From: an uncultured Elusimicrobia bacterium
Lineage (GTDB): Bacteria; Elusimicrobiota; Elusimicrobia; FEN-1173
Length of the DNA: 64,000 nucleotides
Direction: 5' to 3'
Assembly: GCA_964482515.1 (NCBI GenBank)
Contig: CAYZXT010000009.1
Span: 16,251-80,250 of the forward strand
Positions 1,839 through 26,530 of this stretch are shown in pieces. Positions within the stretch are counted from its first letter, which is position 1. Every line of letters begins with the position of its first letter. The translations under genes were made by a program, and so were the position numbers. Below the pieces are notes generated by a model. The model did not search any database, was not told where the DNA came from, and saw only the letters and a program-made list of their open reading frames with translations.

Positions 1839-2375
1839 ATGACGATCCAATCGATCAACGATATCCACCGGATGATTTACCTGATCCGCGGGCGGAAGGT
1901 GATGCTCGACCGCGACTTGGCCGCGCTCTACGGCGTTCCCGTGAAACGGCTGAATGAGCAGGTCCGGCGGAATCGAAAGCGATTTCCGTCCGATTTCAAG
2001 TTTCAGCTCTCAAGGGAAGAGGCGGGTTTTCTAAGGTCGCAAATTGCGACCTTAGAGCCGGGGCGGGGCAAATACAGTAAATATGTGCCGGATGCATTCA
2101 CCGAACATGGGGCCGTCATGTTGGCCAGCGTTTTAAGCAGCCCGCGCGCCATTCAAATGAGTGTTGATGTTGTCCGGGCCTTCATTGAAATGAGGCGAAT
2201 CATTTCTGCAACCCAAGGGTTGGAGGAGAAAATGGCGGCACATGAGAAGAGCATAATTGGCTTAACGAATGACTGCGAAATTTGTTCGAACTTCTCAAGC
2301 CGTTGCTGGAGGCGCCGCCCAAAACACCGGGCACTGTCGGCTTCCGCTAGTTCGGTGCCGGCGTTGATTTATTAA
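1839..2375 (+). CDS. ORF6N-domain protein (KilA-N/ORF6N antirepressor-like DNA-binding family); C-terminus looks divergent
   Basis: IRGRKVMLDRDLAALYGVPVKRLNEQVRRNRKRFPSDFKFQLSREE...FTEHGAVMLASVL is the ORF6N signature. Paralog of 24387..24914. Confidence 0.7.
   Translation: MTIQSINDIHRMIYLIRGRKVMLDRDLAALYGVPVKRLNEQVRRNRKRFPSDFKFQLSREEAGFLRSQIATLEPGRGKYSKYVPDAFTEHGAVMLASVLSSPRAIQMSVDVVRAFIEMRRIISATQGLEEKMAAHEKSIIGLTNDCEICSNFSSRCWRRRPKHRALSASASSVPALIY
2030..2056. repeat. 27-bp perfect palindrome inside ORF6N-1 (tctaaggtcgcaa-a-ttgcgaccttaga)
   Basis: 13-bp arms around one centre base. It encodes the conserved LRSQIATL region. Its core ggtcgcaaattgcgacc recurs at 24338-24354. Confidence 0.8.
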
Positions 2376-2448
2376 CGGGAATTTTCATGATCTAAGTCAT
2401 CCCCCTTTATTCCCTCAATAGTATGATCCGGCCAAATAGGGGGTTGCC

Positions 2449-3063
2449 ATGAAAAATCGCACGCGGCGGGGCGCTTTAATGGCTTTGTTCCTGTTGGGTT
2501 CCACCGGGTTCTTCCAGGCGGCGTGGGCGGGAGGGGCCGATCCGCGGGTCGCGCTCGCCCTCCTGCTGGGGAAGAAGGATCTAAGCACCGCCGACTGGGG
2601 CGTCGTGCTGGACGAGCATGCTTTAGCCGGTTTCGAGTCGGAGTTCTACCTGCGCCGTTATCCCTTCAACCTGGTGGCGGACTACCGGGTGAGCGACGAC
2701 TCCGCCGTCCTCGGCCTGGGGGTGGAAGCGGACACGCGGGAAATCAGCCTGGGCGTGCGGAAACGCTGGCCGCGGGAGGCGAGCTGGTGGGGCGCGCACC
2801 TTTCCGCGGGGCCGGCCTGGGTGGAGGGCCGCCTGCAAACGGCCCGGTTGAACTTCAGCGGGGCGACAATCAATTCGGTGACCGTGGAAGACAAGGACGC
2901 GGCCCCGGGGGTTTGGCTGGGGAGCGGGGCGGAAGTGTATATCGCCAAGACGGTCTTCCTGGGACTGGATCTGCGGTACAGCTACGCCAAGGTCAAACTG
3001 TTCGGCACGGCCGCGAAAGCCGGCGGAACGAGTTACGCCGTGAAGACGGGGGTCCGGTTCTGA
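2449..3063 (+). CDS. Outer membrane beta-barrel protein (OmpW/opacity-like porin family)
   Basis: Signal peptide MKNRTRRGALMALFLLGSTGFFQAAWA, alternating amphipathic strands, and a C-terminal ...VKTGVRF ending in Phe. Confidence 0.55.
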   Translation: MKNRTRRGALMALFLLGSTGFFQAAWAGGADPRVALALLLGKKDLSTADWGVVLDEHALAGFESEFYLRRYPFNLVADYRVSDDSAVLGLGVEADTREISLGVRKRWPREASWWGAHLSAGPAWVEGRLQTARLNFSGATINSVTVEDKDAAPGVWLGSGAEVYIAKTVFLGLDLRYSYAKVKLFGTAAKAGGTSYAVKTGVRF

Positions 3064-3074
3064 CGCGGTCCGGG

Positions 3075-3115
3075 AAATAAAAAACGGCGGCCGACCGCTC
3101 CGCCGTCTTTTCTTT
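3075..3115. terminator. Bidirectional rho-independent terminator
   Basis: aaaaaACGGCGGccgaccgctCCGCCGTcttttctttg: 7-bp GC stem with an A-run before and a T-run after, between convergent genes. Confidence 0.6.
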
Positions 3116-3132
3116 GTGTGAGCGAGGGGATG

Positions 3133-4569
3133 TTATTTCGACGGGGGAGCCTCCGCCGGGACGCTTGTTCCCGACGGCGATGACCCCGTCTTCGGGGCCG
3201 TGGACAGCGCCGCCAATATCCGTTTCTGCGCCGCGGCCGCTTCCTGGGTGCTCACGCCTTCCAGCCCGACGCGGCATTCCCGCAGCGCCGTTTCGTAATC
3301 GCCCAGCCCCTCGTAGGACAGTCCCTTCTGGAAATGGAAATAGGCGATGTCCTTCCGCAGCTCCTCCACCCGCTTGGCCTTGTCCGCCGAAGATGCGTCT
3401 TTTTCCAGGGCGTCCTGGGCGGCGTTGAAGTCCGCGGTGACGATCTTGATCAGGGAATCGTAGCTGTCGATGGCGGACTGGAAATTCTTGTCGTGGAACT
3501 GCGCCAGCGCCAGTCCCTTCCGCACGTCGAACATGTTGGGGTTCCTCGTCAGGGCCTTCTCGAACTCCACGCTCGCTTCGGTGAAATGCCCGAGCATCAG
3601 GTGGGCATGCCCCAGCTTGGCCTGGAGGGCTTCCTTGTTCAGGAAAGTTTTGGAGATTTCGACCTGGAGGAGCTCGATCGCCTTCGTCGCGTCCTTCTTC
3701 GCCTCCTCGGTCTTTCCGAGGGCGGCGTAGATCTGGGCCTCCTTGAAAAGGATGTCGCTGTTGTTCGGGGCGAGGGCCACGGCCTGTTTGATGCTGTTGA
3801 GCGCCTCGGCGTTGTTCCCCTGCTGCTGATAGATCAGCGTGAGGTCCAGGTGAGCGTCCACGACGACGGGCGATCCGGTGTAGTTGGAGGCGACATCTTT
3901 GTATATAGGTACGGCTTTGTCCGACTGGCCGGAAAGCCGCAGTCCCTTCGCTTGGGCGTAGCGGCACCTGGCCGTGTCGGCGAGGCTCACGGACGCGGAC
4001 CAGGCGAAATCCAGCAGGCGCTGGGCCGCCTCGTATTTCCCCAGGGCGACGCCCTCTTCGCCCGCGGCCAGGAGGTCCGCCGAGAGTTTGGAAAGCATCT
4101 TGTCGATTTCCGCGCCGAGGGATTCGTTGCCCGCGAGAAGCTTCTTCATGTCCTTGGCCTGGGCGATGACATCGCCGTACTTTTTGGCTTCGATCAGGTC
4201 CTGGGACAGCTGCAGCTGGGCCGCCACCATCAGTTTGGCGGCGGGGCCGGCGGAGGGCGTGTCGTGGAATTCGTTCAGGACGGCCTGGGCTTTGTCCCTG
4301 GCGGCGGCGAAATCGCCCGCGTCCAGGGTCAGCTTGGCCTGGGACAGCGTAAGAGCGGCCATGCCTTCGCGCCCTTCCTTGACCAGGGCGGGCTCGCGGG
4401 CGGGGTCCTTCTCCATGAGCTCTTTATAGATTTGTTTGGCGTCCTCCACCTTGCCCGCGGCGGCGAGTTTCTCGGCTTTCTTGGCTTTGGAGCTGAGCTC
4501 CGCCCGGGCGGCGGGGACGATCAAGGCGAACAGCATGACGAGGGCGAGCGACTTTTTCAAACCGGGCAT
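3133..4569 (-). CDS. Secreted TPR-repeat protein
   Basis: Signal peptide MPGLKKSLALVMLFALIVPAARA, followed by multiple TPR-like repeats (A/K/E-rich helical repeats, YxxLG motifs). Confidence 0.7.
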   Translation of the reverse strand: MPGLKKSLALVMLFALIVPAARAELSSKAKKAEKLAAAGKVEDAKQIYKELMEKDPAREPALVKEGREGMAALTLSQAKLTLDAGDFAAARDKAQAVLNEFHDTPSAGPAAKLMVAAQLQLSQDLIEAKKYGDVIAQAKDMKKLLAGNESLGAEIDKMLSKLSADLLAAGEEGVALGKYEAAQRLLDFAWSASVSLADTARCRYAQAKGLRLSGQSDKAVPIYKDVASNYTGSPVVVDAHLDLTLIYQQQGNNAEALNSIKQAVALAPNNSDILFKEAQIYAALGKTEEAKKDATKAIELLQVEISKTFLNKEALQAKLGHAHLMLGHFTEASVEFEKALTRNPNMFDVRKGLALAQFHDKNFQSAIDSYDSLIKIVTADFNAAQDALEKDASSADKAKRVEELRKDIAYFHFQKGLSYEGLGDYETALRECRVGLEGVSTQEAAAAQKRILAALSTAPKTGSSPSGTSVPAEAPPSK

Positions 4570-4772
4570 AGATCCTCCTGAAAATATGTGTGATTATGCC
4601 CAAGGATAACCGCCCATGGCCCAAGATGCAAGGCCAAAAAAGGGGGGTGGCGGGCCTCCACAATAATACCCTTTTTCCGTCTGAAAATGCTATCCTCCTG
4701 CTTCCCCGAAGAGCAACGAACTCAATCTAAAATCCAATTTTCGCAGCGGACTTTCTGAAGGATCGGTGAATT

Positions 4773-5738
4773 ATGAGCGCTTCAATTACGGTCATCATGC
4801 CGACGCACAACAACGCCCCCTATCTGGCCGAAGCCGTCGAATCGGCCGCCAGCCAGGGCGTGCCCGGACTGAAGATCATCATCGTCGACGACGGGTCGAC
4901 GGACGATACGCCCCGGGTCGCGGCCGAACTGGTCAAGAAACACGGGCCGGCGACGGTCCATTACCTCCGCAAGGAACAGGGGGGCGTGGCGGCCGCGCGA
5001 AACAGCGCGAGGGCCTTCTGCGACGGGAAATACGTGGCCTTCCTGGACGGGGACGATGTTTGGCTGCCGGGGTCCCTCCGGGTGCGGATCGATTTTTTGG
5101 AAAAAACCCCCGAGGCCGGGTTGGTTTGCGCGGACGCCGAGACGTTCAACGAGAGAGGGATAATCGACGCCTCTTTCTTTGAATCCCGGAAGAGGTTCCG
5201 GAGTTTCGCGGAAGCGGGATTCAAGATCCTCGACATCTTCAACCACATCGTCAGGGTCTGTTTCGTCCTGACCTCGACCGTCGTGGTCCGCCGGGAATGC
5301 CTGGACGCCGTCGGCTGGTTCGATGAATCGCTCAAGGTGGGGGAAGACAAGGAGATGTATTTCAGGATCGCGCGGAAGTTCCGCATCATGGGCCTGCCGG
5401 AGAAAGTCGTGCGGCGGCGCATCCACGGACATAACCTGACCGCCGACCAGGTGCTGTCGCGCACGACCTATGTCGGACTGGTGGAGATGATCCGGAAGAA
5501 GGACCCTGCTTTCTACGAAGAGAACCGGACAAGGTTCCGCCACTGGCTCGGGGCGTTGCACCACGAGTTGGGCTACCAGATGCTGGGAAAGCGCCGTTTC
5601 GCGGAAGCGGCGTCGCGGCAGATCCAGAGCCTTTATTTCCGCCCGTCGGGCCGCGCCGCCTATTATTTAGGCGTGAGCATGGTGGGCCTCCTCGCCGGCG
5701 GAAACATCCTGGAGCGGTTTAGAGTCAGGCCCAATTGA
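4773..5738 (+). CDS. Family 2 glycosyltransferase
   Basis: VIMPTHNNAPYLAEAVESAASQ...IIVDDGSTDDT...FLDGDD: GT-A fold DxD architecture. Confidence 0.8.
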   Translation: MSASITVIMPTHNNAPYLAEAVESAASQGVPGLKIIIVDDGSTDDTPRVAAELVKKHGPATVHYLRKEQGGVAAARNSARAFCDGKYVAFLDGDDVWLPGSLRVRIDFLEKTPEAGLVCADAETFNERGIIDASFFESRKRFRSFAEAGFKILDIFNHIVRVCFVLTSTVVVRRECLDAVGWFDESLKVGEDKEMYFRIARKFRIMGLPEKVVRRRIHGHNLTADQVLSRTTYVGLVEMIRKKDPAFYEENRTRFRHWLGALHHELGYQMLGKRRFAEAASRQIQSLYFRPSGRAAYYLGVSMVGLLAGGNILERFRVRPN

Positions 5739-5779
5739 TCCGCCCCGCCCGAGACGGCGGAAAACGGCGGCGATTTAAA

Positions 5780-5817
5780 TAAAAAGACGGCGGTCGCGCT
5801 GACCCGCCGTCTTTTTG
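5780..5817. terminator. Bidirectional rho-independent terminator
   Basis: aaaaaGACGGCGGtcgcgctgacCCGCCGTCttttt between the GT2 gene (+) and the LemA gene (-). Confidence 0.6.
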
Positions 5818-5834
5818 TCCGCTCGGAGAATCTT

Positions 5835-6410
5835 TTATTCGAAGCTGACCTTGGGCGCGGCCTTGGCCGTTTCCTCCGCCTCGAAGTAGGCGTCGGATTT
5901 CTCAAAGCCGGCGATGCCGGCGATGACGTTGGTCGGGAAGCGCCGCACCGTCACGTTATAGTCGCGGATGACCTGGTTGTAGCGCCGGCGCTCCACGGCG
6001 ATGCGGTTCTCGGTGCCCGCCAGCTCGTCCTGCAGCCGGAGGAAGTTCTCGTTGGCCTTCAGGTCCGGGTAGCGCTCCACCACGATCATGAGGCGGGACA
6101 GCGCGCCTTCCAGTCCCTGGGCGGCCTGGATCTTCGCCTGGGGGGTCTTGGCTTCGCCCCACTGGCTGCGCAGCCGCGTGACTTCCGTCAGGACTTCCTG
6201 TTCATGCTTCGCGTAGCCCTTCACCGTGTTGACCAGGTTCGGGATCAGGTCGTAGCGCCGCTGCAGGACGTTCTCCATCTGCGCCCAGGACTCGGGCACC
6301 GCTTCGTTGAGCGTCACCAGCCGGTTGTATCCCGAAACGCCGCAGCCTCCCAGCAAAACCAGAACGAACAGAATCGATCCCAGGACGATCCAAGACTTCT
6401 TCATTTTCAT
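5835..6410 (-). CDS. lemA: LemA family lipoprotein
   Basis: MKMKKSWIVLGSILFVLVLLGGCGVSGYNRLVTLNEAVPESWAQMENVLQRRYDLIPNLV... is the typical LemA N-terminus with a lipobox. Confidence 0.8.
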   Translation of the reverse strand: MKMKKSWIVLGSILFVLVLLGGCGVSGYNRLVTLNEAVPESWAQMENVLQRRYDLIPNLVNTVKGYAKHEQEVLTEVTRLRSQWGEAKTPQAKIQAAQGLEGALSRLMIVVERYPDLKANENFLRLQDELAGTENRIAVERRRYNQVIRDYNVTVRRFPTNVIAGIAGFEKSDAYFEAEETAKAAPKVSFE

Positions 6411-6422
6411 TTCCTCCGTAAT

Positions 6423-7139
6423 TTAGTTGGTCCGGCCCACCCAGGCGTCCACCGCGTCAACCACCGTTTCCACGGACTTCAGGTAGCGGGCGAACAGCCC
6501 GAGGGCGTCCAGCCCCTTGTCTTTCTTGCCTTGCCTCATTTCATCAATCAGGCGAAATACTTCGTCGTCGAATTCGACGCGCTTCCTCAGCTCCGCCAGC
6601 GCTTCCAGTTTCTTGGCCGGGGGCGTTCCGCCGTGCAGCCGCAGCGCGGCGCGGAACAGCACCAGGAACGTGGAGAGGGAATTCATCAAAAGTTCGCGGA
6701 CCTTGTCTTCCTTGCCCTCCGTCAGGAGGAAGCGCTCCCGCAGCTGCAGCAGCTTGCCCTTGAGCTCGTGCTCCAGCTCGGCACGGAGATGTGCCGGGTT
6801 GATCACGGTGTCGGCCAGCGGATCTTCGCCGAAGAGAATGCGCCGCGTGTCGCGGATGTCGGCCAGCTCGATGGGGAACACGTCCGCCGACGCCCTGAGC
6901 CGGTCCCGGGTGAAGAGCAGGGGCGGCGGGTTGCCGTCCTTGGCCCAGCGGGCCGCGACCTTGGTGATGGACGTCAGCTCCTCCATGCCGAGCTTGTTGA
7001 GCACCGCGAGGATGTTGAAGTTGGACTTCCCGGCCACGTGGTCGCCCGCGGCCGCCGATCCGTACAACACCACGGACCGCAGATTGTTTCCGGCGGCGGC
7101 CCGCAGTTGCTCTGAAAGTTCTTCCGGCGTAAGCGTCAT
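6423..7139 (-). CDS. Hypothetical protein, possibly a degenerate nucleotidyltransferase-like fold, within the LemA/TPM module
   Basis: 238-aa ORF with VVLYGSAAAGDHVAGKSNFNILAV (GS...G loop but no DxD). It lies between the LemA and TPM genes in the same orientation. Confidence 0.4.
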   Translation of the reverse strand: MTLTPEELSEQLRAAAGNNLRSVVLYGSAAAGDHVAGKSNFNILAVLNKLGMEELTSITKVAARWAKDGNPPPLLFTRDRLRASADVFPIELADIRDTRRILFGEDPLADTVINPAHLRAELEHELKGKLLQLRERFLLTEGKEDKVRELLMNSLSTFLVLFRAALRLHGGTPPAKKLEALAELRKRVEFDDEVFRLIDEMRQGKKDKGLDALGLFARYLKSVETVVDAVDAWVGRTN

Positions 7140-7163
7140 CGTCTATCCTCCATGAATAAAATC

Positions 7164-7919
7164 CTACCAGCCGCGGCCGGCGCCCCCGCCTCCGGAGCCG
7201 CCCCCGCCGAACCCGCCGAAGCCCCCGCCGAACCCGCCGTCGCCGAATCCACCGCGCCCGCCCCGTCCGCCGCTCAGGAGCAGCAACAGCAGGAACGGGT
7301 TGCGGATGATGACCGGCGCCAGCACCAGCAGCAGGGCGATGAACAAAAGGTTGGAGAGCCACCCGCCGCGCTTGGATTGCCGGCCCGCCGGCACGCCGCC
7401 GGTGAGCTCGACGCCCCTGTCCCGCGCCACGATCGACGCCACGGCCGACGCGCCCCGCAGGACGCCGCCGGTGTAATCGCCCTTTCTGAAAAAGGGCACC
7501 ATGTGCTTGTCCAGAATTTCGCCGGCGAGCCCGTCCGGCAGGACGCCCTCCAGGCCGTAGCCGGTTTCAATCCGGGCCCGGCGGTCGTCCACGGACACCA
7601 GGATCAAGGCGCCCCGGTCCGTGGCTTTATTGCCGATGCCCCATTTCTCGTAGAGCCCGGCGGCGTAGCTTTCGGGGTCGCTGCCGCCCAGGTCCTTCAC
7701 CGTGACCACGGCGACCTGCGCGTCCGCCTTGGCTTCCAGTTCGGATAAAAGCCCCGAGAGCGCGGCGGCGGCCCGGCCGTCCAGCACCCCGGCCGCGTCG
7801 GTGACGTAGCCCCGCGGGGCGGGATATTCGTCCGCGCGCGCGCCCTCCGCCGGAAAGAATCCGGCGAGGGCGAGCCCTAATAGCGCGGCCGTGAGTTTTT
7901 TGCGGGGCAGGTCGATTTT
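7164..7919 (-). CDS. TPM-domain protein (YgcG-like) with a Gly-rich C-terminal tail; the N-terminus probably extends upstream of the tracked Met at 7787
   Basis: YPAPRGYVTDAAGVLDGRAAAALSGLLSELE..., one TM segment and a GGRGGRGGFGDGGFGGGFGG tail are typical of TPM/YgcG. The in-frame upstream sequence encodes a signal-like KKLTAALLGLALAGFFPAEGARA but no canonical start codon. That points to a non-canonical start or a sequencing error. Confidence 0.55.
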   Translation of the reverse strand, partial: KIDLPRKKLTAALLGLALAGFFPAEGARADEYPAPRGYVTDAAGVLDGRAAAALSGLLSELEAKADAQVAVVTVKDLGGSDPESYAAGLYEKWGIGNKATDRGALILVSVDDRRARIETGYGLEGVLPDGLAGEILDKHMVPFFRKGDYTGGVLRGASAVASIVARDRGVELTGGVPAGRQSKRGGWLSNLLFIALLLVLAPVIIRNPFLLLLLLSGGRGGRGGFGDGGFGGGFGGFGGGGSGGGGAGRGW

Positions 7920-7931
7920 GCTACCGGCTTT

Positions 7932-8459
7932 CTATCGCGGTTTTCCGGGTTTGTCCGGATGCATGGGCCGTTCCACGTTGGACCGGACGGGTCGTTCCGT
8001 CTTCATCCGCTCGGGGCGCTCCATCTTTTCCATCCGCTCGCGCTTCTCGATCCTTTCGCGCTTCGGATGGTCGACGTTCTTCGCGTTCCGGTCCACGGCG
8101 CGTATTTCCTTGTTCAGCTCGCCGAGGCTGAGATCGTATTTCTTTGCGATCTCACCCCAGCCCATGCCGTCGTTACGCAGGGCCATGATCGTGTCCGTGG
8201 TCTGGCCGGACTTCTGGGAGATCGCCAGCAGGTGCGACGCCTCGCCCCAGCCCATTCCCGACGCGCGAAGGTCCTCCACCGTCTTTTTCTCCACGCCGAA
8301 GCGGGTGGACAGTTTCTCCACCTGCTTTTCGGTGATGGCGGGCTCTTGTTTCAGGGTTTCGTCTTTCACGGCGTCGTCGCTCCGGGCGGGCGCGGTCGAA
8401 AGCATGGTTCCCAACAGCAGGAACGAAAACATCACAGCCCGTTTGGTCTTTGAGATCAT
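7932..8459 (-). CDS. Secreted hypothetical protein with two GMGWGE repeats
   Basis: Signal peptide MISKTKRAVMFSFLLLGTMLSTAPARS. The internal duplication is LRASGMGWGEASHLLAIS / LRNDGMGWGEIAKKYDLS. The C-terminus is charged and rich in K/E/R. Confidence 0.45.
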   Translation of the reverse strand: MISKTKRAVMFSFLLLGTMLSTAPARSDDAVKDETLKQEPAITEKQVEKLSTRFGVEKKTVEDLRASGMGWGEASHLLAISQKSGQTTDTIMALRNDGMGWGEIAKKYDLSLGELNKEIRAVDRNAKNVDHPKRERIEKRERMEKMERPERMKTERPVRSNVERPMHPDKPGKPR

Positions 8460-8563
8460 AGGTCATTCTCCTTTGGTTCGGGCATTCCCGAGAATCTTTA
8501 TCCTAGCTATAAGACACCCGAGACCGCAATAAGGTAATTCATTTGATAGGATAGGAAGTCTCC

Positions 8564-10979: not shown

Positions 10980-11005
10980 TAAGAGGACCGCGCGGCGGAG
11001 GAGGG

Positions 11006-16788: not shown

Positions 16789-16818
16789 AAAATTGTGCAG
16801 CAAGTTGCTGCACAATTT
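16789..16818. promoter_or_regulatory. 30-bp perfect palindrome (aaaattgtgcagcaa-g-ttgctgcacaattt), a candidate operator ~30 bp upstream of yhcG
   Basis: 14-bp perfect arms. It is preceded by a direct repeat tgtcggatgg-gat-tgtcggatgg at 16743-16768. Confidence 0.4.
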
Positions 16819-16847: not shown

Positions 16848-17942
16848 GTGAACATTATGCCGCGTCAGAAAAAATCCCATCCAATAGTGAAACAAGCTGC
16901 TTCATCATTTCCGATGCCCGTTGATTTGTTGTCGGACATTCGAGGGTTTATTGAGACAACCCGTTCCCGGACGGCGCAGGCCGTCAATGCCGCATTGGTC
17001 ATGCTCTATTGGCGCATCGGGCGGCGTATCCAAGACGATGTTCTTAAAAACAAGCGGGCCGGTTATGGGGAAGAGATTGTGCAGACACTGTCGACACAAT
17101 TGGTCCCTGAATTCGGGGAGGGATTTGGCAAGCGGGTTCTTTTTCGGATGATTCGGTTCGCCGAGGCTTTCCCGGACGAACAGATTGTGTCGACGCTGTC
17201 GACACAATTGGGATGGTCTCATTTTGTGGAAATCATTCCCTTGGACGATCCGCTCAAGCGGAATTTCTACGCCGAGATGTGTCGGCTGGAGGGCTGGAGC
17301 GTGCGGAAGTTGCGGGAGAAAATCAGCGGGATGCTTTTTGAGCGGACGGCCCTTTCTAAGAAACCCGCCAAACTCGCTGAGTTGGAGCTGAAGAAGCTTC
17401 GCGAAGAGGACAAGCTCACGCCGGACCTGGTTTTCCGGGACCCTTATTTCCTGGATTTTCTCGGTCTTAAAGGTGTGTATCTGGAAAAGGATTTGGAAGC
17501 CGCGATCTTGCGGGAGATGGAGACGTTCATCCTGGAGTTGGGGGCCGGTTTTTCCTTCGTCTCTCGGCAAAAACGCATCCAGATCGGCGGAGAGGATTTT
17601 TATTTGGACCTTTTGTTCTATCACCGTAAACTGCGCCGCCTCGTCGCCGTGGAATTGAAATTGGGGAAGTTTAAACCCCAGTTCAAAGGCCAGATGGAGC
17701 TTTACCTTCGCTGGCTGGACAAGCACGAACGGCAGTCCGGCGAAGAAGCGCCGCTCGGACTCATCCTTTGCGCGGACAAGTCCGACGAACAGGTGGAGTT
17801 GTTGCAACTTGAAAAGAGCGGCATTCGCGTTGCTCAATATATGACTGCCTTGCCGTCTCGAAAGGTATTGGAAAATAAACTCCACCAAGCCATCCGCCAT
17901 GCGCGGGAACGCTTGGAAACCATAAAAGAATCCGGCGATTAG
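16848..17942 (+). CDS. yhcG: YhcG-family nuclease (DUF1016 N-terminal domain plus PD-(D/E)xK restriction-endonuclease-like domain)
   Basis: YWRIGRRIQDD...GYGEEIVQTLSTQL...FG.GF...LF.M..F...F...LSWSH...L and a C-terminal FLDFLGL...GAGFSFVSRQKRIQIGGEDFYLDLLFYHRKLRRLVAVELKLGKF (D-E-K core). Confidence 0.75.
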   Translation: MNIMPRQKKSHPIVKQAASSFPMPVDLLSDIRGFIETTRSRTAQAVNAALVMLYWRIGRRIQDDVLKNKRAGYGEEIVQTLSTQLVPEFGEGFGKRVLFRMIRFAEAFPDEQIVSTLSTQLGWSHFVEIIPLDDPLKRNFYAEMCRLEGWSVRKLREKISGMLFERTALSKKPAKLAELELKKLREEDKLTPDLVFRDPYFLDFLGLKGVYLEKDLEAAILREMETFILELGAGFSFVSRQKRIQIGGEDFYLDLLFYHRKLRRLVAVELKLGKFKPQFKGQMELYLRWLDKHERQSGEEAPLGLILCADKSDEQVELLQLEKSGIRVAQYMTALPSRKVLENKLHQAIRHARERLETIKESGD

Positions 17943-18011: not shown

Positions 18012-18983
18012 ATGCCACCCCCGTGGAAACCGATATTACTTGTCGGGCTATGCCTGATATCCACCGGCGCGGCGCATCCCTGGTCCCGCGCCGGGCATGA
18101 AGCCTCCGCCCTCATCGCCGAAGGCCGCCTCGACCCCGCCACCCAAGCCAAAATCCGCGCGCTCCTCGGGCCCGGCGTCGGGCTGGACGACATCGCCCTC
18201 TGTTCCGACGCCATCAAGCGCCGCTCCGTGAACTGCGCCGGCGCCTTCTTCGTCAAGCGCGCGCCCCACACCAAGGCCTGGCATTACATCGACATCCCCA
18301 TTTCCGACGAACCCGCCGCCGGCGGCCTGCAGCAGTATTGCCCCAACGACGATTGCGTGACGGACCGCATCGCCGACCAAACCAAGGTCCTCAAAGACCC
18401 CGCCGCCCCGCGGCTGGAGAAGCAGGTCGCGCTCATGCACCTGGTCCATTTCGTGGGCGACCTGCACCAGCCGCTGCACTGCGCCGACGACAGGGACGCC
18501 GGCGGCAACGGCAAGAAGGTCTGGTTCATGGCGGGTCCCCGCGCCCGGAAGCCCGCCACCCTCCACCAGCTCTGGGACAACATGGTGGAGAAGGATTCCG
18601 TGCACGACAGGCTGGACGTCCGCGGCCTGGCCCGGTCCCTGGACGGCGCGATCACGGAGGAGGAAGCCGCGGCCTGGGCCAGGGGCTCCACCCACCAATG
18701 GACGATCGAAAGCCACCGCATCGCCCGGAACACGATCTATCCGCAGTACGCGCGGGACAAGGGGAAGGATTTGGGCAAGGACTACCAGGACGCCATGCGC
18801 CCCATCGCCCATGAACAGGTTCAAAAGGCCGGCGTCCGGCTGGCGGTGCTGCTGGACAAGACCCTGGCCGGCGTCACGGTGGAAGACCTCACCCGCGAAG
18901 CCCCGAAGCGGAAGGCGACGCCCGTTCCCACCGGACAAAAACCGCCCAAAGGCGGCGGCCCCATCCCCCTGCCGGGAAGATAG
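18012..18983 (+). CDS. Secreted S1/P1-family nuclease
   Basis: Signal peptide, then WSRAGHEASALIAE...WHYIDIPI...C...ALMHLVHFVGDLHQPLHCADDRDAGGNGKKV...LHQLWD, which are the Zn-ligand motifs of S1/P1 nucleases. Confidence 0.75.
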   Translation: MPPPWKPILLVGLCLISTGAAHPWSRAGHEASALIAEGRLDPATQAKIRALLGPGVGLDDIALCSDAIKRRSVNCAGAFFVKRAPHTKAWHYIDIPISDEPAAGGLQQYCPNDDCVTDRIADQTKVLKDPAAPRLEKQVALMHLVHFVGDLHQPLHCADDRDAGGNGKKVWFMAGPRARKPATLHQLWDNMVEKDSVHDRLDVRGLARSLDGAITEEEAAAWARGSTHQWTIESHRIARNTIYPQYARDKGKDLGKDYQDAMRPIAHEQVQKAGVRLAVLLDKTLAGVTVEDLTREAPKRKATPVPTGQKPPKGGGPIPLPGR

Positions 18984-19004
18984 GTTTTTGATGTCATTCC
19001 GGCG

Positions 19005-21977: not shown

Positions 21978-22007
21978 ATCAAAAAGGTGTTTTTATGAAA
22001 AAGAAAC

Positions 22008-22036
22008 CGGTACCGGAGTTGACAGATTGACAATCA
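22008..22036. repeat. Copy 2 of the TTGACA-containing element (ccggtaccggagttgacagattgacaatc)
   Basis: Sits immediately after the MmeI-like stop codon. See 1721-1746. Confidence 0.6.
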
Positions 22037-22077
22037 GGTTCAGTACTAGATTTGATTTGTTGAAGGAGCCCCCGCAA

Positions 22078-22212
22078 TGAAAACCAAAAAGCCCCTCTGC
22101 CAAGCCATCAACACGAAAGGGAAGAAGTGCATTGTCCCTGCCGTGCCCGGCAGCAAATTCTCACCTTCCTACAGACAGGTGCCACGGCTAGCGCCGACGG
22201 GTTTCCGACATA
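22078..22212 (+). CDS. Hypothetical 44-aa basic peptide (MKTKKPLCQAINTKGKKCIVPAV...)
   Basis: Short ORF not in the track. It contains a copy of the 21-bp repeat acaggtgccacggctagcgcc also found inside 23199..24242. Coding status is uncertain. Confidence 0.2.
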
Positions 22213-22369
22213 AGAAGAAATAACTGTCCTTTTCTCCCGTTATTCCCAGCCCGTTTCCCTAAAACTTCAGATTAAATCCCGCTAAGCTCCAGATTCTTCC
22301 TCTATGATGAGGTGAGATATGGTTCTTGATGGTCGTTCACATATATGTTAACCTTGAGGAGATGGCGGC

Positions 22370-22792
22370 GTGAGCACTCATTCTGAGAAGCGGAATTGCG
22401 TGCTTTATTCCGGCCGGTTCTATTCGGCCGAATGGTATTACAGGGAGGACGGCGGGATGCCGGCTCTCGAATATTATCGGGAACTCCCTATCCATGATCG
22501 AGTGCGGCTATTACAGATCATTAAGCACCTGTGCGACGCTCCCTACGGGACAATCCTTCCCGTGACGCTTTACAGGATCGAAGATCGGGAAAACAAGATT
22601 TACGCGTTTAAGCCGAGGGACGAGCGATTCTTCAGTTTTACGATGGAGGGCGCAAGGGTCATCGTTACGAACGCTTACCGCAAGCATTCACAACAGATGA
22701 CCAAGGCGGATCTGGAGTCCTTGAAAACAGCTGTTCGCTATCGGAACGATTATTTGAGGCGCCTGAAAGAGGGGACATATTATGAAGGCTAA
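22370..22792 (+). CDS. Gp49-like (HigB/RelE superfamily) type II toxin
   Basis: GTG start with a GAGGAG SD. WYYREDGGMPALEYYRELPIHDRVRLLQIIKHL... and C-terminal ARVIVTNAYRKHSQQMTKADLESLKTAV fit the phage Gp49/HigB-type toxin pattern (W.V.YY...; IVLLH.F.KK.QKTP..EI). Confidence 0.6.
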   Translation: MSTHSEKRNCVLYSGRFYSAEWYYREDGGMPALEYYRELPIHDRVRLLQIIKHLCDAPYGTILPVTLYRIEDRENKIYAFKPRDERFFSFTMEGARVIVTNAYRKHSQQMTKADLESLKTAVRYRNDYLRRLKEGTYYEG

Positions 22793-23132
22793 AAAGAAAA
22801 TCAAAAAGGCAAAGAGCACCTTTGATCGGGAAATGGAAAACCCGGAATTCAGGAATCTTTTCGAGGAATCTTGGCCCGCCTTCCAAGTGGAAGTCCAGCT
22901 GCTGAAAGCCTTGGAAGGCAAGCAATGGTCCTATTCCGACCTCGCGAAGGTATTGCACACGCAGAAGAGCGCCATTTCGCGCGACCTGAAAGGCGGCGGC
23001 ATTCGGTCTGCTTCCATCACGCGGATCGCGAAGATGGCGGAAGCCCTGGGAATGAGATTTATCCCGTTCTGCGTCTCCGAGAAGAAGGCGAGGGAAATTC
23101 TTCCCGCTATCAAGAAACTCCTGGCCGCGTAA
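22782..23132 (+). CDS. HTH (XRE-like) antitoxin partner
   Basis: Overlaps the toxin gene by 11 nt. WSYSDLAKVLHTQKSAISRDLKGGGIRSASITRIAKMAEALGMRF is an HTH motif. Confidence 0.6.
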   Translation: MKAKKKIKKAKSTFDREMENPEFRNLFEESWPAFQVEVQLLKALEGKQWSYSDLAKVLHTQKSAISRDLKGGGIRSASITRIAKMAEALGMRFIPFCVSEKKAREILPAIKKLLAA

Positions 23133-23140
23133 TAGGGATT

Positions 23141-23170
23141 CGTGCCGGAGTTGACACGTTGACAATCGAC
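23141..23170. repeat. Copy 3 of the TTGACA-containing element (cgtgccggagttgacacgttgacaatcgacc)
   Basis: Lies between the antitoxin stop and the DUF1016-SNase start. It could also act as a -35 region. Confidence 0.6.
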
Positions 23171-23198
23171 CAGCCTATTCTTTAAGTACAATACCTCC

Positions 23199-24242
23199 AT
23201 GCCGAAAGAATCCATCCCCTCGGTCGCCCATCCCGCCTACGCCAAGCTCCGTTCCGCCGTCCACAAAACCCTCCTCCTCGGTCAGAAACAAATCGAACAA
23301 GCCAAAGTCCGTACCTACTACGAAACCGGAAAACACATCCAAGAACATATCGCCCGCTACGGTTCGCGCTCCGAGCATTACGGCGCTCAAGTGGTGGAGA
23401 AGCTTTCGGTTGATTTGGGGATTAGCACCCGGGTCTTGCGGCAGTGTGTGCAGTTCGCCCGGAACTTCAAGATTGTGAACGCGCGTTCACAATCTTTGCC
23501 GGCCCAATTGCCTTGGACGCATTACCGTCAACTGATGACCATTCCGGATGAGGACGCGCGGATTTCCCTGATGAAAAGGGCCGAGAAGTCCGAATGGAGC
23601 GAACGCCAGCTGGCGGAGAAGATCCGCCTTGAGGTGCGAGAAGCAAAGTCCCCGTCAACCAACGGCGGGCATAGTTCAATGGTAGAAAAGAAGTATCCCA
23701 AGCTCATTCCCAAGCGCGGCGAGCTTTACACGTACCGCCTCATTGCGCCGGAAGCGGTTGATGGCGAAGCGGGTCTGTGGATTGATTTGGGTTTCCAGGT
23801 GCGGCGCACCTTTCCACAAACAGGTGCCATGGCTAGCGCCAAGGGCGGACAGATCGTGGAATCCAAAAAGACGGGGGAAATCTATTCCGCGGTCCCGTCC
23901 AAGCGGACGGAGGCGGACTTGTTCACCTTCCAGGCGCCGGTGGAGCGGGTGGTGGACGGCGACACGCTGATCGTGAACGTCGACCTGGGGTTCGACACGG
24001 GCGTGCGGCAATACCTGCGGTTGCGCGGCATCAATTGCCCGGAGCTGGACACGCCGGAGGGCAAGCGGGCCAAGGCCTTCGTGGAAAAGGAATTGGGGAA
24101 AGCGCGGCGGATCATCCTGACGAGCTCCCGGTCCGACAAGTACGACCGCTACCTGGCGGACGTGTTTATTGAGTCCACCAACGGCGAACGATATCTGAAC
24201 CAGGCGCTGCTGGACGAAGGCCTCGCGGTCCGGATGGAATAG
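23199..24242 (+). CDS. Fusion nuclease: DUF1016 (YhcG N-terminal) domain plus staphylococcal-nuclease-like (SNase/thermonuclease) domain
   Basis: The N-terminal VRTYYETGKHIQEHI...GAQVVEKLSVDLGIS...LRQCVQFARNF...LPWTHYRQLMTIPDEDAR...WSERQL resembles the YhcG N-domain. The C-terminal VERVVDGDTLIVNVDLGFDTGVRQYLRLRGINCPELDTPEGKRAKAFVEKELGKARRIILTS...DKYDRYLADVFIE...NQALLDEGLA resembles SNase. There is an internal partial duplication: AVDGEAGLWIDLGFQVRRTF resembles VVDGDTLIVNVDLGFDTGVRQY. Confidence 0.7.
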   Translation: MPKESIPSVAHPAYAKLRSAVHKTLLLGQKQIEQAKVRTYYETGKHIQEHIARYGSRSEHYGAQVVEKLSVDLGISTRVLRQCVQFARNFKIVNARSQSLPAQLPWTHYRQLMTIPDEDARISLMKRAEKSEWSERQLAEKIRLEVREAKSPSTNGGHSSMVEKKYPKLIPKRGELYTYRLIAPEAVDGEAGLWIDLGFQVRRTFPQTGAMASAKGGQIVESKKTGEIYSAVPSKRTEADLFTFQAPVERVVDGDTLIVNVDLGFDTGVRQYLRLRGINCPELDTPEGKRAKAFVEKELGKARRIILTSSRSDKYDRYLADVFIESTNGERYLNQALLDEGLAVRME

Positions 24243-24305
24243 CCCTCCCAATCTTCATCCCTCCTTCAGTCGTTCTTCAGACTTAAAAAGTAATCTCTCC
24301 TCCAT
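24243..24305 (+). promoter_or_regulatory. Conserved ORF6N leader, copy B
   Basis: agccctcccaatcttcatccctccttcagtcgttcttcagacttaaaaagtaatctctcctcc, about 80% identical to copy C at 26283-26340. Confidence 0.5.
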
Positions 24306-24337
24306 GAATTGTGCATGATGAATGGGAGGACTAGAGG

Positions 24338-24354
24338 TGGTCGCAAATTGCGAC
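24338..24354. repeat. 17-bp palindrome ggtcgcaa-a-ttgcgacc upstream of ORF6N-2 (the same core as the intragenic palindrome of ORF6N-1)
   Basis: Exact match to 2036-2052. It sits ~35 bp upstream of the probable ORF6N-2 start. Confidence 0.7.
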
Positions 24355-24386
24355 CGCCTTCGACCACTCAAATTCTTGGAGGTTTT

Positions 24387-24914
24387 ATGCGAGCTGTAAT
24401 GAAAACCGAACACATTCAATCGATGATATTCCTGATTCGCGGGCGCAAGGTCATGTTGGACCGTGATTTGGCGGCGCTTTATGGCATTGCCACAAAGGTC
24501 CTTAAGCAGGCTGTTAAGCGGAATCATTTGCGATTCCCGGAGGATTTCATGTTTGAACTGTCTGCGGAAGAGCAGTCAAATTGGAGGTCACAATTTGTGA
24601 CCTCCAATTCTTCCCTGAATAAGGGACTCCGGTGGCGTTCAATGGCATTCACTGAGTATGGTGTGGCCATGCTTTCCGGCGTTCTGAAAAGTGAAAGGGC
24701 CGTTCAGGTTAATATCGCCATCGTTCGGGCATTTATCGACATGCGGCGGATGATTTCGGAAACACGAGGGTTGGCGGAGAAATTGGCGGAGCATGAGAAA
24801 AAGATCGGGGGACTGGCGAACGATGTCCGGCATATGTTCGACCTGCTACAGCCGTTGCTGGATGGACCCACTAAAAAACCCGGGAAGATCGGGTTCGGAA
24901 TGCGACAGATTTAG
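24387..24914 (+). CDS. ORF6N-domain protein (full length)
   Basis: MKTEHIQSMIFLIRGRKVMLDRDLAALYGIATKVLKQAVKRNHLRFPEDFMFELSAEEQSNWRSQFVTSNSS...[35 protein letters not shown]. The track ORF starts at 24309; the start was chosen at the ATG four nt after GGAGG. Confidence 0.7.
   Translation: MRAVMKTEHIQSMIFLIRGRKVMLDRDLAALYGIATKVLKQAVKRNHLRFPEDFMFELSAEEQSNWRSQFVTSNSSLNKGLRWRSMAFTEYGVAMLSGVLKSERAVQVNIAIVRAFIDMRRMISETRGLAEKLAEHEKKIGGLANDVRHMFDLLQPLLDGPTKKPGKIGFGMRQI
24579..24609. repeat. 31-bp perfect palindrome inside ORF6N-2 (aattggaggtcacaa-t-ttgtgacctccaatt)
   Basis: 15-bp arms. It sits at the position homologous to the ORF6N-1 palindrome, encoding NWRSQFVTSNS. The core ggtcAcaa/ttgTgacc differs from the ggtcGcaa/ttgCgacc of ORF6N-1 by a compensatory base-pair change. 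Confidence 0.8.
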
Positions 24915-25570
24915 CGGGCGATGAGGGCGTTGTACGCCCGGATGGCGGCGTAGGCGTCGTTGGCGGCGTAGAGGAGTTGCAGTTCGCTGAGGATCGGGAG
25001 CCCCCAGTTGGACGTGCCCTGCTTTTTGGATTTGAGGAAGCGTTGTTTGAAGAGCAGCGCGATGCCCACCTTGGAGCCCACGCCGCGGCCGAAGCCCTTT
25101 TCGGCGAAGAGCGTTTCGAGGTCCACCACGCCGTGGGGCTCGACGCGCAGTTTCTTGCGGATGCGCGACAGGTCGTCCCCCAGGCCGAAACCCACTTTTT
25201 TGAGGCTCTTAAAAGAGATGAGTTCGGCGGCGGCCTGGCGGCATTCCGGCTGGTTCAGCATGAACACGTAGCCGCGCGTGGCGGTGGCGAACTGGACGAC
25301 GTGGGGGCCGGTGGAGACCTGTCCTTTATGGAAGGTGGGTTTGGATTCGGTGTCGAAGCCCACCACGCTTTCGGCCGCGAGCTCCTTGAACGCCCGCTGC
25401 GCGAGGGCCGGCGTGTTCACCGCGAGGATGTCCCCGCGGCGCAGGGCGTGGAACGGCGGAAGGGCCGCCATTTCCTCGCGCGTGGGCCAGTGGGCCGGGC
25501 GCTGGCGGTTCGGGACGCGCGGCGGCGCGGAGGGTTTGAACAGTTTTTTGAGCCAGCGGCGGATGACCAA
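24911..25570 (-). CDS. 3'-5' exonuclease domain protein (RNase D / WRN-exo-like, DEDDy family)
   Basis: VVGFDTESKPTF...VVQFATATRGYVFML...KKVGFGLGDDLSRI...VVDLETL...SNWGLPILSELQLLYAANDAYAA carries the Exo I-III motifs. Confidence 0.65.
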   Translation of the reverse strand: MVIRRWLKKLFKPSAPPRVPNRQRPAHWPTREEMAALPPFHALRRGDILAVNTPALAQRAFKELAAESVVGFDTESKPTFHKGQVSTGPHVVQFATATRGYVFMLNQPECRQAAAELISFKSLKKVGFGLGDDLSRIRKKLRVEPHGVVDLETLFAEKGFGRGVGSKVGIALLFKQRFLKSKKQGTSNWGLPILSELQLLYAANDAYAAIRAYNALIAR

Positions 25571-25576
25571 GGGGGA

Positions 25577-26212
25577 TTACGGTTTCCGGAACAGCGAGGC
25601 GTCCACCGGGCCGGGGGTGAACTCGACGGCTTCCTCGGTCCGCCGGAAGACGGTGGTGTTGGCCTGGGAGGAGTGCAAAACGATTTCGGCCTTCAGGACC
25701 GCGCCCGTCTCGGCGTCCACCCAGGCGTCGACGCTGCGCACGGAGTCCGGCAATTTCACCTTGGCGTGGTAGCGCCGGGCCTTGCGGCCCGCCACTGTTT
25801 CGGTCTCGCCCGCCTCGCCGGTGTAGGCCTTCCGCCAGAAGCGGATCTCGTGGAGCTCCGCCTCCGTGGGTTTGTGGGAATACTCGGAGGGCTCCGTGGC
25901 GTGCGCGCCGTCGGGCGAAGGGGCGTAGACGATCTTTTCGAACAGGGTCTCGCCGTCGAAGAACCGCGTCACCTTGTATTCGGCGGGGGGCGCCATGAAG
26001 CGGTCCTCCCGCGCGTCGGCCTCGGTGCGGAAGCGCTTCCCGTCGGTGTGGATCCTGACGCGCTCCGCGGTTTTCGTGCCGGCCGTTTCGTTCTCCCGGA
26101 TGACCGTCCAGGTGCCGCTGAAGGGCGAGTCCTGGACGCGGCTGGGCGAGCATTTCTTGAGCAGGAAAGCGAAGGCGGCGACGGCGAGGACGGCCAGGAG
26201 CAGGTTCTTCAT
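25577..26212 (-). CDS. Secreted/lipoprotein hypothetical protein
   Basis: Signal MKNLLLAVLAVAAFAFLLKKCS. No recognisable catalytic motif. Confidence 0.4.
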   Translation of the reverse strand: MKNLLLAVLAVAAFAFLLKKCSPSRVQDSPFSGTWTVIRENETAGTKTAERVRIHTDGKRFRTEADAREDRFMAPPAEYKVTRFFDGETLFEKIVYAPSPDGAHATEPSEYSHKPTEAELHEIRFWRKAYTGEAGETETVAGRKARRYHAKVKLPDSVRSVDAWVDAETGAVLKAEIVLHSSQANTTVFRRTEEAVEFTPGPVDASLFRKP

Positions 26213-26282
26213 GGCCTGATTGTAAGAAACAACCGCCGCCGGTTCAAGGGCGGAGATTCACCCGACCCGCTTCCGAGGCCTT

Positions 26283-26340
26283 CCTCCCAATCTTCATCCT
26301 CCCTCCCGCGGTTCTTCAGAATCAAAAAGTAACCTTTCCT
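26283..26340 (+). promoter_or_regulatory. Conserved ORF6N leader, copy C
   Basis: cttcctcccaatcttcatcctccctcccgcggttcttcagaatcaaaaagtaacctttcctgcgg. Confidence 0.5.
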
Positions 26341-26530
26341 GCGGTTCCCGGAAGATTTCGCATTTCGCCTGAATAAAGAGGAATATGAGTCTTTAAGATT
26401 CCAAACTGGAATCTTAAAGAGAGGACAGCACGCCAAGTATCTGCCATTGGTATTCACTGAGCAAGGCGTTGCCATGCTCTCGAGCGTTCTCCGGAGCAAA
26501 CAGGCGGTTCAAGTGAACATCGCCATCATG
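26341..26530 (+). pseudogene. Truncated ORF6N-domain gene fragment (third paralog)
   Basis: My in-frame translation gives [64 protein letters not shown]. It lacks the N-terminal IRG(Q/R)KVMLD half and has no proper start or stop. It contains the 31-bp palindrome 26390-26420 (tctttaagattcca-aac-tggaatcttaaaga). Confidence 0.5.

Follow-up and report, generated by a model that had tools for sequence, protein, structure and literature searches.

Intragenic DNA sites in described systems

Palindromic DNA sites are known to occur within coding sequences; the parS site is reportedly located inside the parB/spo0J gene (work attributed to Lin and Grossman, 1998), that is, within the coding sequence of its own binding protein. 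Here we describe a palindrome, referred to below as the box, that lies at a fixed position within genes of the ORF6N family. Three such genes are present in the window, the whole 64,000-nucleotide (64-kb) stretch of contig CAYZXT010000009.1 from an uncultured Elusimicrobia bacterium that was analysed. The ORF6N box resembles parS in its location in the gene of its putative binding protein. However, parS is one of several dispersed sites, has no family-wide fixed codon and no specificity classes, and functions in segregation with ParA, whereas the ORF6N box is found at the same codon in nearly all members, falls into at least five helix-matched classes and has no partner ATPase.

Intragenic auxiliary operators, such as lac O2 in lacZ, gal OI in galE and purR O2 in purR, are likewise dyads located past a start codon that act by looping or as roadblocks, and that of purR lies in its own gene; in contrast to the ORF6N box, they are single-species, imperfect palindromes that are not conserved across a family and do not shape a peptide motif. 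The controller (C) proteins of restriction-modification systems, with their C-boxes, and the phage immunity repressors are small dimeric helix-turn-helix (HTH) proteins of mobile or defence DNA with palindromic operators and insulating specificity groups, but those operators are intergenic, whereas the ORF6N site lies inside the open reading frame (ORF) and is inseparable from it by recombination. Short dyad sites at fixed positions in paralogous coding sequences are also known as intragenic crossover sites, for example those of Hin/Gin (gix), the R64 shufflon and phase-variable hsdS; these systems have a dedicated recombinase and alternative arrangements, neither of which was found for ORF6N. 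Perfect inverted repeats in functional coding sequence, with both arms coding, have been described in the mitochondrial genes of Nematomorpha, where they reach 284 bp (PMC6649704); unlike the ORF6N box, they are long, lineage-specific and scattered over many genes, and no cognate protein has been proposed for them. Template switching at quasipalindromes generates symmetric double changes in one step (PMC8794818, PMC7202029), but it is a mutational mechanism rather than a function and predicts no coupled change in a helix 25-35 codons upstream. Our literature searches found no prior description of an intragenic palindrome in ORF6N genes, in agreement with the initial annotation of this DNA, or in DUF1016 (YhcG) genes. 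What is new with respect to these precedents is the combination of a family-wide fixed intragenic position, several specificity classes and a readable helix-to-base code.

A palindrome at a fixed position in ORF6N genes

The three perfect palindromes that the initial annotation reported in the ORF6N genes of the window were all present (Table 1) and, as it had proposed, they occupy the same homologous mid-gene position: in each, the centre coincides with base 1 of the codon immediately downstream of a CAA glutamine codon. A scan of the window for perfect dyads (arms of at least 10 nt and a loop of at most 5 nt) detected seven palindromes, of which three are in ORF6N genes, three are in or beside DUF1016/YhcG genes and one is in a sensor kinase gene. 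By an arithmetic estimate, about 0.006 palindromes with arms of at least 13 nt are expected by chance in 64 kb; since only seven dyads were detected in total, chance is no explanation. The peptides encoded at copies 1 and 2, which had been described as nearly the same, share the R-S-Q-x-x-T core and nothing beyond it, and the sequence of copy 3, which had been thought unrelated, proved to be the TTCCAA variant of the same box family, found also in seven other loci of our collection (L011, L014, L030, L046, L056, L061 and L271). An assembly artefact was ruled out by the presence of the same palindrome in more than 100 independent assemblies, including finished plasmids. A dispersed mobile palindrome, such as a repetitive extragenic palindromic sequence, a miniature inverted-repeat transposable element or a Rickettsia palindromic element-like repeat, was also rejected; box-type palindromes occur only at the three ORF6N loci of the 64 kb.

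To this family we assigned loci gathered by peptide patterns that lie outside the box: 80 from one-genome-per-species contigs, 80 from viral contigs and 14 from plasmids. The species-contig loci span Bacteroidota, Planctomycetota, Omnitrophota, Verrucomicrobiota, the candidate phyla radiation (CPR), Acidobacteriota, Campylobacterota and a Woesearchaeote. The palindrome was present at the homologous position in nearly all of the loci, with the consensus TTGAGGTCACAA-W-TTGTGACCTCAA and the 17-bp core GGTC[A/G][C/A]AA-W-TT[G/T][T/C]GACC. In 73 genes, a mean of 13.4 of the 15 mirror positions was complementary, compared with 6.8 in same-peptide controls whose synonymous codons were resampled by local usage, and 57 of the 73 genes differed from their controls at p<0.001. 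Across 111 distinct boxes, 89.5% of the cells paired, compared with 73.2% in column shuffles (0 of 500 shuffles reached the observed value), and changes on both sides were found in 258 cells where 75 were expected. The covariation score was 0.435, against at most 0.106 when the partners were slid by 1-3 columns. Thus, the nucleotide-level family alignment and covariation analysis suggested in the initial annotation revealed an excess of dyad symmetry. Complementarity fell to background beyond ±15, and position ±6 was T·A in 102 of the 111 boxes, a base-specific rather than a pairing-only preference.

Some ORF6N genes (L031, L041, L157, L291 and L292) contain two boxes, either with a duplicated RSQ motif 45-75 nt apart or with an extra copy in an N-terminal extension. 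The intragenic palindrome is lost or degraded in a subfamily characterised by the motif L-x-S-Q/H-x-x-I-P-S-K (L286, L288, L290 and the second gene of L032); L290 has instead a box 14 nt past its stop codon.

The conserved object is DNA

Codon usage within the box was strongly biased. The central glutamine was encoded by CAA at a ratio of 65:5, compared with 306:311 elsewhere in the same genes, and the central phenylalanine and isoleucine were always TTT (42:0) and ATT (23:0), respectively. Furthermore, distant ORF6N subfamilies retain the box offset by 2 nt from the reading frame, so that a different peptide is encoded. The core GTCGCAAATTGCGAC encodes S-Q-I-A-T in window copy 1 and V-A-N-C-D in L283 and L291, which are on Legionella fallonii and Segatella hominis plasmids, and GGTCGAAAATTTCGACC encodes R-S-K-I-S-T in L285 (a Treponema type I restriction-modification [RM] operon) and V-E-N-F-D in L161, the latter reading being found on 2955-bp and 60-kb plasmids. 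Only two members of the VENFD subfamily were found in viral contigs. The occurrence of one DNA core in two frames with different peptides indicates that the constraint is on the DNA and not on the peptide. The earlier proposal that the dyad itself is selected was therefore borne out: the dyad is family-wide, biases synonymous codons and survives a shift of reading frame. A protein-level cause of the motif was rejected, as the box encodes no structured core element; in an AlphaFold2 (AF2) model of ORF6N-2, box 2 covers the codons for the end of helix 60-69 and for part of a loop modelled with low confidence (predicted local distance difference test [pLDDT] <50).

The initial annotation had also considered an RNA hairpin with an attenuating effect on translation or transcription, and an RNase III site is a further possibility at the mRNA level; the stem would be very stable, and the same sequence has a terminator-like appearance in phage intergenic regions. 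However, the composition of the pairs did not fit this role. Among 1500 cells in 100 distinct boxes, 1319 were Watson-Crick pairs, and G·U pairs on the coding strand (25) were rarer than A·C (47) even though they would often be synonymous; at ±4, A·T pairs (59) far outnumbered G·T pairs (2), despite tcG and tcA being synonymous codons. In 99-100% of the boxes, there was complementarity at ±2 and ±3, where a hairpin loop would preclude pairing. No U-tract follows the intragenic boxes, a search of the boxes against Rfam gave no match, and the upstream box of L049 and L055 lies upstream of the likely transcription start. The near-absence of G·U and the complementarity up to the centre show that DNA rather than RNA is selected, and we consider an mRNA hairpin extremely improbable. 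The conserved object is DNA, neither peptide nor mRNA.

Coupling of a predicted recognition helix to the box

The AF2 model of ORF6N-2 (mean pLDDT 74) consists of a beta-beta-alpha-alpha winged-helix-like domain and a long C-terminal helix. The best PDB matches of the modelled domain were to the Ski/Dachshund DNA-binding domain (probability approximately 0.9, with weak E-values), and helix 103-158 matched designed coiled coils; a sequence-based search for a solved structure of the ORF6N domain found none. The identities of three residues in the predicted recognition helix followed those of the box bases. Residue 45 was Arg in all 124 genes with C·G at ±3 and Asn or His in all 8 genes with A·T (132/132 in total), and both states occurred in both reading-frame phases. 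The combinations of residue 41 with bases -5/-4 were Q:CA (61 genes), E:CG (20), R:GC (7), R:AC (3), K:TC (7) and K:GG (1), and the R38/E41 helix class was paired with TCGCAA boxes in 20 of 20 genes. ORF6N-1, with R and E aligned to residues 38 and 41 of ORF6N-2, respectively, has the box TCGCAA. The single discordant gene, L075, has an upstream non-coding box that fits its helix class.

When approximately 95 alignment positions outside the box were scanned, V38 and Q41 carried 1.44 and 1.50 bits, respectively, of the 1.70 bits possible on the variable box bases, whereas the other residues were within about 0.3 bit of shuffles, including equally variable residues between the helix and the box. 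Shared ancestry or linkage is not the cause of this signal, because many positions would then respond. In a neighbour-joining tree built without the helix and box residues, the helix class changed 33 times, the box class 34 times and the joint label 34 times, which indicates that helix and box switch together; the specificity classes were intermixed on the tree (33-34 changes compared with 35 for shuffled labels). Since the same helix-base rules hold in both frames, in which the amino acids differ, contacts within the protein cannot explain the code. Arg or Lys with G, Gln or Asn with A, and Glu with C are textbook contacts, and the ORF6N pairings agree with them. The paired G/C-to-A/T difference between copies 1 and 2 is therefore a change of predicted specificity class mirrored in the helix.

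The dyad, at 27-31 bp, suits a dimeric protein with the modelled coiled-coil helix, and the site covaries with the helix, as would be found for an autoregulatory operator. We therefore consider it very probable, on sequence grounds, that the box serves as cognate double-stranded DNA site for the product of the gene in which it lies, and the helix-to-box covariation lends support to the operator role for the ORF6N domain that was among the initial suggestions.

The box could alternatively be a DNA hairpin or cruciform that is read by its shape, acting as a roadblock that depends on supercoiling or as a signal on mobile DNA in its single-stranded stage. The classical ColE1 cruciform has a similar arm length and A/T-rich centre to the boxes, which have 13-15 bp arms; symmetry is perfect at positions of varying sequence, the z-scores of DNA folding range from -4 to -7 (-5.0 for box 1 and -6.8 for box 2), a non-coding copy in L049 has arms extended to 24 nt, and each of the two boxes of DUF1016 genes keeps its private symmetry. 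Such a structure does not, however, predict the tracking of box bases by residues 38, 41 and 45. Complementarity is also selected at ±1 to ±3, which are unpairable in a hairpin loop, and several positions, such as ±6, are base-specific. A cruciform is thus very unlikely.

Paired changes alone are no proof of selection on the dyad, because replication template switching creates them in a single event (PMC8794818). A palindrome without function could perpetuate itself if template switching copied the changes of one arm to the other: the process has been shown to generate perfect stems and keep them intact (PMC8794818), E. coli has documented quasipalindrome hotspots (PMC7202029), and the boxes are perfect even in the frameshifted ORF6N-1 and in the ORF6N-3 fragment. 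This would leave unexplained the helix-box code and the base-specific invariant positions, the retention of non-coding boxes beside genes that have no intragenic box, and the restriction of such palindromes to two predicted DNA-binding families in the window. We regard this possibility as negligible.

Non-coding boxes and co-resident paralogs

Non-coding boxes were found in at least 17 loci in addition to the window, with a position profile like that of the coding copies. Most are located 40-100 nt before the start codon, at a distance of 227-329 bp from the box inside the gene. The copy of the ORF6N-1 core that had been noted upstream of ORF6N-2 is real, although its coordinates are 24339-24355 rather than 24338-24354. 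This degraded box lies 32 nt before the ATG at 24387 and 247 bp from intragenic box 2, and it is of the ORF6N-1 type, unlike the gene behind it. In Butyrivibrio pCY186, near-identical boxes are located 15 nt upstream of the start codon and within the gene. The similarity of upstream and intragenic boxes from the same locus was only slightly higher than that of random pairs (9.33 and 8.66 of 13 positions, respectively). Taken alone, this result would speak against operator specificity, but it is accounted for by the many upstream boxes that belong to other helix classes.

Two Chitinophagaceae loci (L049 and L055) have lost the intragenic box and kept upstream boxes of the class that the helix predicts. 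In both, the central TTTG of the box is 19 nt upstream of a TAtaTTTa (TAnnTTTG-like) element, an arrangement that resembles the Bacteroidota -33/-7 promoter consensus; the upstream box plausibly overlaps the promoter in these loci.

Co-resident paralogs belong to different classes in the six loci compared, each of which has two or three classifiable ORF6N copies: CG, CA and TC in the window, TC, CA and CG in L014, and two different classes each in L011, L021, L067 and L271. An exception is L032, which has two CG-class copies. We infer that paralogs tend to keep separate classes; this pattern suggests that most copies sharing a locus are insulated from one another and that cross-regulation occurs as well, and it does not suggest simple autorepression at the promoter.

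A second family: DUF1016/YhcG

The DUF1016 genes of the window (PF17761 plus PF06250, E=3.3e-46 and 4.9e-48; PADLOC PDC-S02, E=4e-130) also contain or adjoin palindromes (Table 1). In this family, the palindromes are 25-27 bp long, with the form ATTGTnnnGACA-N-TGTCnnnACAAT, and are centred on the Leu codon of IV-x-TLS-x-QL, at its first base. The feature is family-wide in metagenome loci: of 38 distinct genes, 34 formed at least 10 of the 12 pairs, and approximately 58 genes have a second box exactly 108 nt upstream. The yhcG gene of E. coli K-12 contains three boxes in tandem (codons 106, 119 and 132). The boxes come with the amino-acid pairs S..R, V..R, A..R, Q..A, G..Q and P..G. An HTH-like helix has three residues, 89, 92 and 93, that covary with box 2 (0.8-1.0 bit); TGCAC, for instance, accompanies N93, and TGAAC accompanies H93. 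This covariation is only suggestive. No homology between ORF6N and DUF1016_N was detected by hhalign on full or trimmed alignments.

The window DUF1016 gene is followed, at 18012-18983 and downstream, by an S1-P1 nuclease gene and an MmeI-like type IIL restriction-modification gene, an arrangement also found in L269. The DUF1016 locus is in a defence-island context.

Genomic context of ORF6N genes

ORF6N genes were found between housekeeping genes, in BREX and type I RM operons, and on small plasmids. Among 118 neighbours of chromosomal ORF6N genes, there were 7 ORF6N genes and 2 integrases; no conserved partner gene was found among these neighbours, and a partition ATPase was not consistently nearby. 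The Segatella copri plasmids L161 (2955 bp) and L162 (4140 bp) have a replication initiator and a box-bearing ORF6N gene as their only annotated genes, which hints at a role of ORF6N in plasmid maintenance or control.

An integrase or recombinase gene adjoins ORF6N in 5 of 10 plasmid loci; tyrosine or serine recombinase genes are located beside ORF6N on the plasmids L283, L284, L290, L291 and L292 and on the Chitinophagaceae contig L055. In L055 and L292, integrase genes are directly upstream of ORF6N, and a box lies at these genes or between them. In L014, a full gene is preceded by an N-terminal ORF6N fragment whose end lies just past its box, and the window has the degraded upstream box and the truncated copy 3. 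These arrangements would fit a crossover site, a role considered in the initial annotation, at which the N-terminal half of the gene is inverted or swapped as a cassette. However, integrases are rare among the chromosomal neighbours, which include no conserved partner. The A/T centre base revealed no orientation rule for pairs of boxes (by our tally, approximately 7 inverted and 7 direct), and an inverted inter-box segment was found in 0 of approximately 58 DUF1016 genes. A crossover site would also leave the helix-box code unexplained, and we find this role, for which no support was obtained, highly improbable.

Proposed role of the box

We propose that the box is the own-gene cognate site of a dimeric ORF6N protein and mediates autogenous control, and we assign this explanation as a whole a probability of roughly 0.6. 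The winged-helix-like domain and long coiled-coil helix are predicted to fit a dimer, each monomer of which would set recognition helix 36-46 on one half-site. An Arg at residue 45 would read C·G at ±3, and an Asn or His there would read A·T; positions ±4 and ±5 would be read by residues 41 and 38, with Gln for CA, Glu together with Arg38 for CG, Arg for GC or AC, and Lys for TC. The predicted target of ORF6N-2 is the duplex GGTCACAATTTGTGACC, and a Q41E/V38R swap is predicted to retarget the protein to GGTCGCAAATTGCGACC. Because one protein must fit both half-sites, both arms would change together, giving the 'compensatory' pattern; the mutations in the two arms may arise through template switching (PMC8794818). 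The site would be accommodated in a stretch encoding a helix end and a flexible loop. As its centre falls on codon base 1 in most genes and on base 2 in some subfamilies, the bases that determine the amino acid pair with wobble bases. Control might be exerted by an intragenic roadblock or by a loop with promoter-proximal copies, and would work under read-through in a foreign operon. Mismatched upstream boxes, such as the ORF6N-1-type box before ORF6N-2, would wire paralogs into cross-regulation. That the specific role is autorepression we put at slightly below even odds.

Several observations weigh against this explanation. The assignment of the recognition helix rests on a model with a mean pLDDT of 74 and a Foldseek E-value of approximately 0.1, and the outer positions ±7 to ±13 covary with only a weak partner in the protein (K37 with -7, 0.58 bit). 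An upstream box was detectable in only about 17-20% of the loci, and by our tally approximately half of these boxes differ in class from the helix of their own gene; simple promoter autorepression is therefore not general. The conserved positions of the non-coding boxes (T-12, A-9, T-6 and C-3) have a period of three, which fits copies derived from coding sequence as well as it fits protein contacts. In DUF1016, the two boxes of one gene usually differ in the variable triplet, so that one helix cannot explain both. Finally, a 21-mer identical to the box occurs in about seven distinct viral loci as an intergenic, terminator-like element with an A-tract, a hairpin and a T-tract; the contigs concerned (L165, L167-L172, L176, L179 and L186) were without an ORF6N gene in the stretch examined.

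These viral occurrences also bear on the possibility that the box is a cognate site that does not serve autoregulation. It could be a nucleation or pairing site (centromere-like or for handcuffing), comparable to parS within parB, or a 'self' site that decoys or titrates an anti-phage DNA-binding effector, with similar palindromes of incoming DNA as its true targets. ORF6N proteins match the PADLOC defence candidate PDC-S05 (ORF6N-2, E=6e-52; Segatella plasmid protein, E=2.5e-71), and the PDC-S05 and PDC-S02 candidates were derived by 'guilt-by-embedding' in RM and BREX systems (bioRxiv 10.1101/2024.01.29.577857). One PDC-S05 representative reduced the plating of T7 and T5 approximately 1000-fold (bioRxiv 10.1101/2024.09.26.614923), but it was described as a RhuM-domain protein and may be no close relative. 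The exact 21-mer GAGGTCACAAWTTGTGACCTC was found in 25 viral loci, with occurrences in phage contigs outside ORF6N genes, whereas two composition-matched control palindromes gave 0 matches; these phage copies, however, look like ordinary bidirectional terminators. ORF6N is the sole gene besides that for replication on the two small Segatella plasmids, and the intermixing of classes on the tree is as expected under diversifying selection, but a partition ATPase is not a consistent neighbour, which weighs against this alternative. Cultured phage records gave only four matches to this ORF6N subfamily, which is thus no typical phage gene. On balance, we judge a role other than autoregulation unlikely, although it is the main alternative to our proposal.

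Implications

The ORF6N (PDC-S05) family is very abundant and essentially uncharacterised, and the present results give it a predicted DNA target, recognition helix and residue-to-base code. The family's most conserved stretch, 'RSQFVTS', is largely dictated by the DNA site and not by protein structure, which bears on the reading of conserved motifs, of ratios of nonsynonymous to synonymous substitution rates (dN/dS) and of covariation. An operator inside the ORF would permit feedback under read-through from a foreign promoter and may explain the embedding of ORF6N in RM and BREX operons. The helix-site pairs (Q:CA, E/R:CG, R:GC or AC, K:TC, and N:A at ±3) appear orthogonal and represent a possible orthogonal repressor toolkit.

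The same design in the unrelated DUF1016 family, including the tractable E. coli K-12 yhcG, suggests a general principle. We tentatively raise the idea, which we hold to be rather doubtful, that ORF6N and, independently, DUF1016/YhcG are 'self-addressed' genes that carry a cognate palindrome in their own frame, coevolving with the helix by a simple amino-acid-to-base code, as a portable regulatory or defence unit whose rapidly switching classes form an identity or immunity label among resident copies and incoming DNA. If this were true, site and reader would be inseparable by recombination and the unit would thus work in any operon; such portability would explain why both families are archetypal RM- and BREX-embedded genes.

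Features of the window

The features discussed above are listed in Table 1. All three ORF6N copies exceeded the PF10543 gathering cut-off of 27.8 bits. When aligned with ORF6N-2, ORF6N-1 has a 1-nt deletion after approximately position 2273 that puts the C-terminal coiled-coil region out of frame; in the ancestral frame, translation would run on to a TAG at 2348-2350, and box 1 is still perfect despite the frameshift, which may reflect a pseudogene or a sequencing error. ORF6N-3 covers only profile positions 39-86, is without the recognition helix and is truncated at its 3' end.

Table 1. Coordinates of the ORF6N and DUF1016/YhcG features in the 64-kb window
Feature	Position	Strand	Centre	Arms and spacer	Class	Remarks
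Conserved 62-nt upstream element, copy 1	1778..1841	+				nhmmer E=5e-17
ORF6N-1 gene	1839..2375	+			CG	PF10543 E=3.5e-30, 104.6 bits
ORF6N-1 predicted recognition helix	1941..1973	+				codons VKRLNEQVRRN; placed via AF2 model of ORF6N-2
Intragenic ORF6N box 1, TCTAAGGTCGCAA-A-TTGCGACCTTAGA	2030..2056		2043	13+1+13		encodes L-R-S-Q-I-A-T-L
Palindrome	16790..16818			14+1+14, perfect		just upstream of DUF1016/YhcG gene
DUF1016 intragenic box 1	17076..17100			10/12 pairs		at motif EIVQTLSTQL
DUF1016 intragenic box 2	17184..17208			11+3+11, perfect		motif QIVSTLSTQL; 108 nt from box 1
Palindrome	23469..23496			14+0+14, perfect		in DUF1016_N+SNase gene (23199-24242) directly upstream of ORF6N-2
Conserved upstream element, copy 2	24242..24304	+				
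Non-coding box upstream of ORF6N-2, GGTCGCAAATTGCGACC	24339..24355		24347		CG (ORF6N-1)	
ORF6N-2 gene, intact	24387..24914	+			CA	PF10543 E=6.7e-29, 100.5 bits
ORF6N-2 predicted recognition helix, T36-N46	24492..24524	+				TKVLKQAVKRN; V38, Q41, R45; box TCACAA
Intragenic ORF6N box 2, AATTGGAGGTCACAA-T-TTGTGACCTCCAATT	24579..24609		24594	15+1+15		encodes N-W-R-S-Q-F-V-T-S-N
Conserved upstream element, copy 3	26283..26344	+				fused directly to mid-gene codons of ORF6N-3
ORF6N-3 fragment	26345..26548	+				PF10543 E=6.9e-14, 52.3 bits
Intragenic ORF6N box 3, TCTTTAAGATTCCA-AAC-TGGAATCTTAAAGA	26390..26420		26405	14+3+14	TC	

The 62-nt element precedes all three ORF6N copies and is conserved above the level of the coding sequence. 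It was found only as these three copies and was absent from approximately 290 other loci searched, raising the possibility that it is a promoter or 5' region specific to this lineage, or that it marks the boundary of a duplication. The ORF6N copies are flanked by toxin-antitoxin-like pairs at 1190-1684 (DUF6036/AbiEii-like), 22370-23132 (Gp49-like plus HTH) and 26578-27236 (Gp49 plus HI1420 antidote).

The palindrome in the membrane sensor kinase gene (61598-61619, perfect 10+2+10) is unrelated to either box family. The sole Rfam match in the window was a cobalamin riboswitch (RF00174, 32.7 bits) at 45762-45922 on the minus strand.

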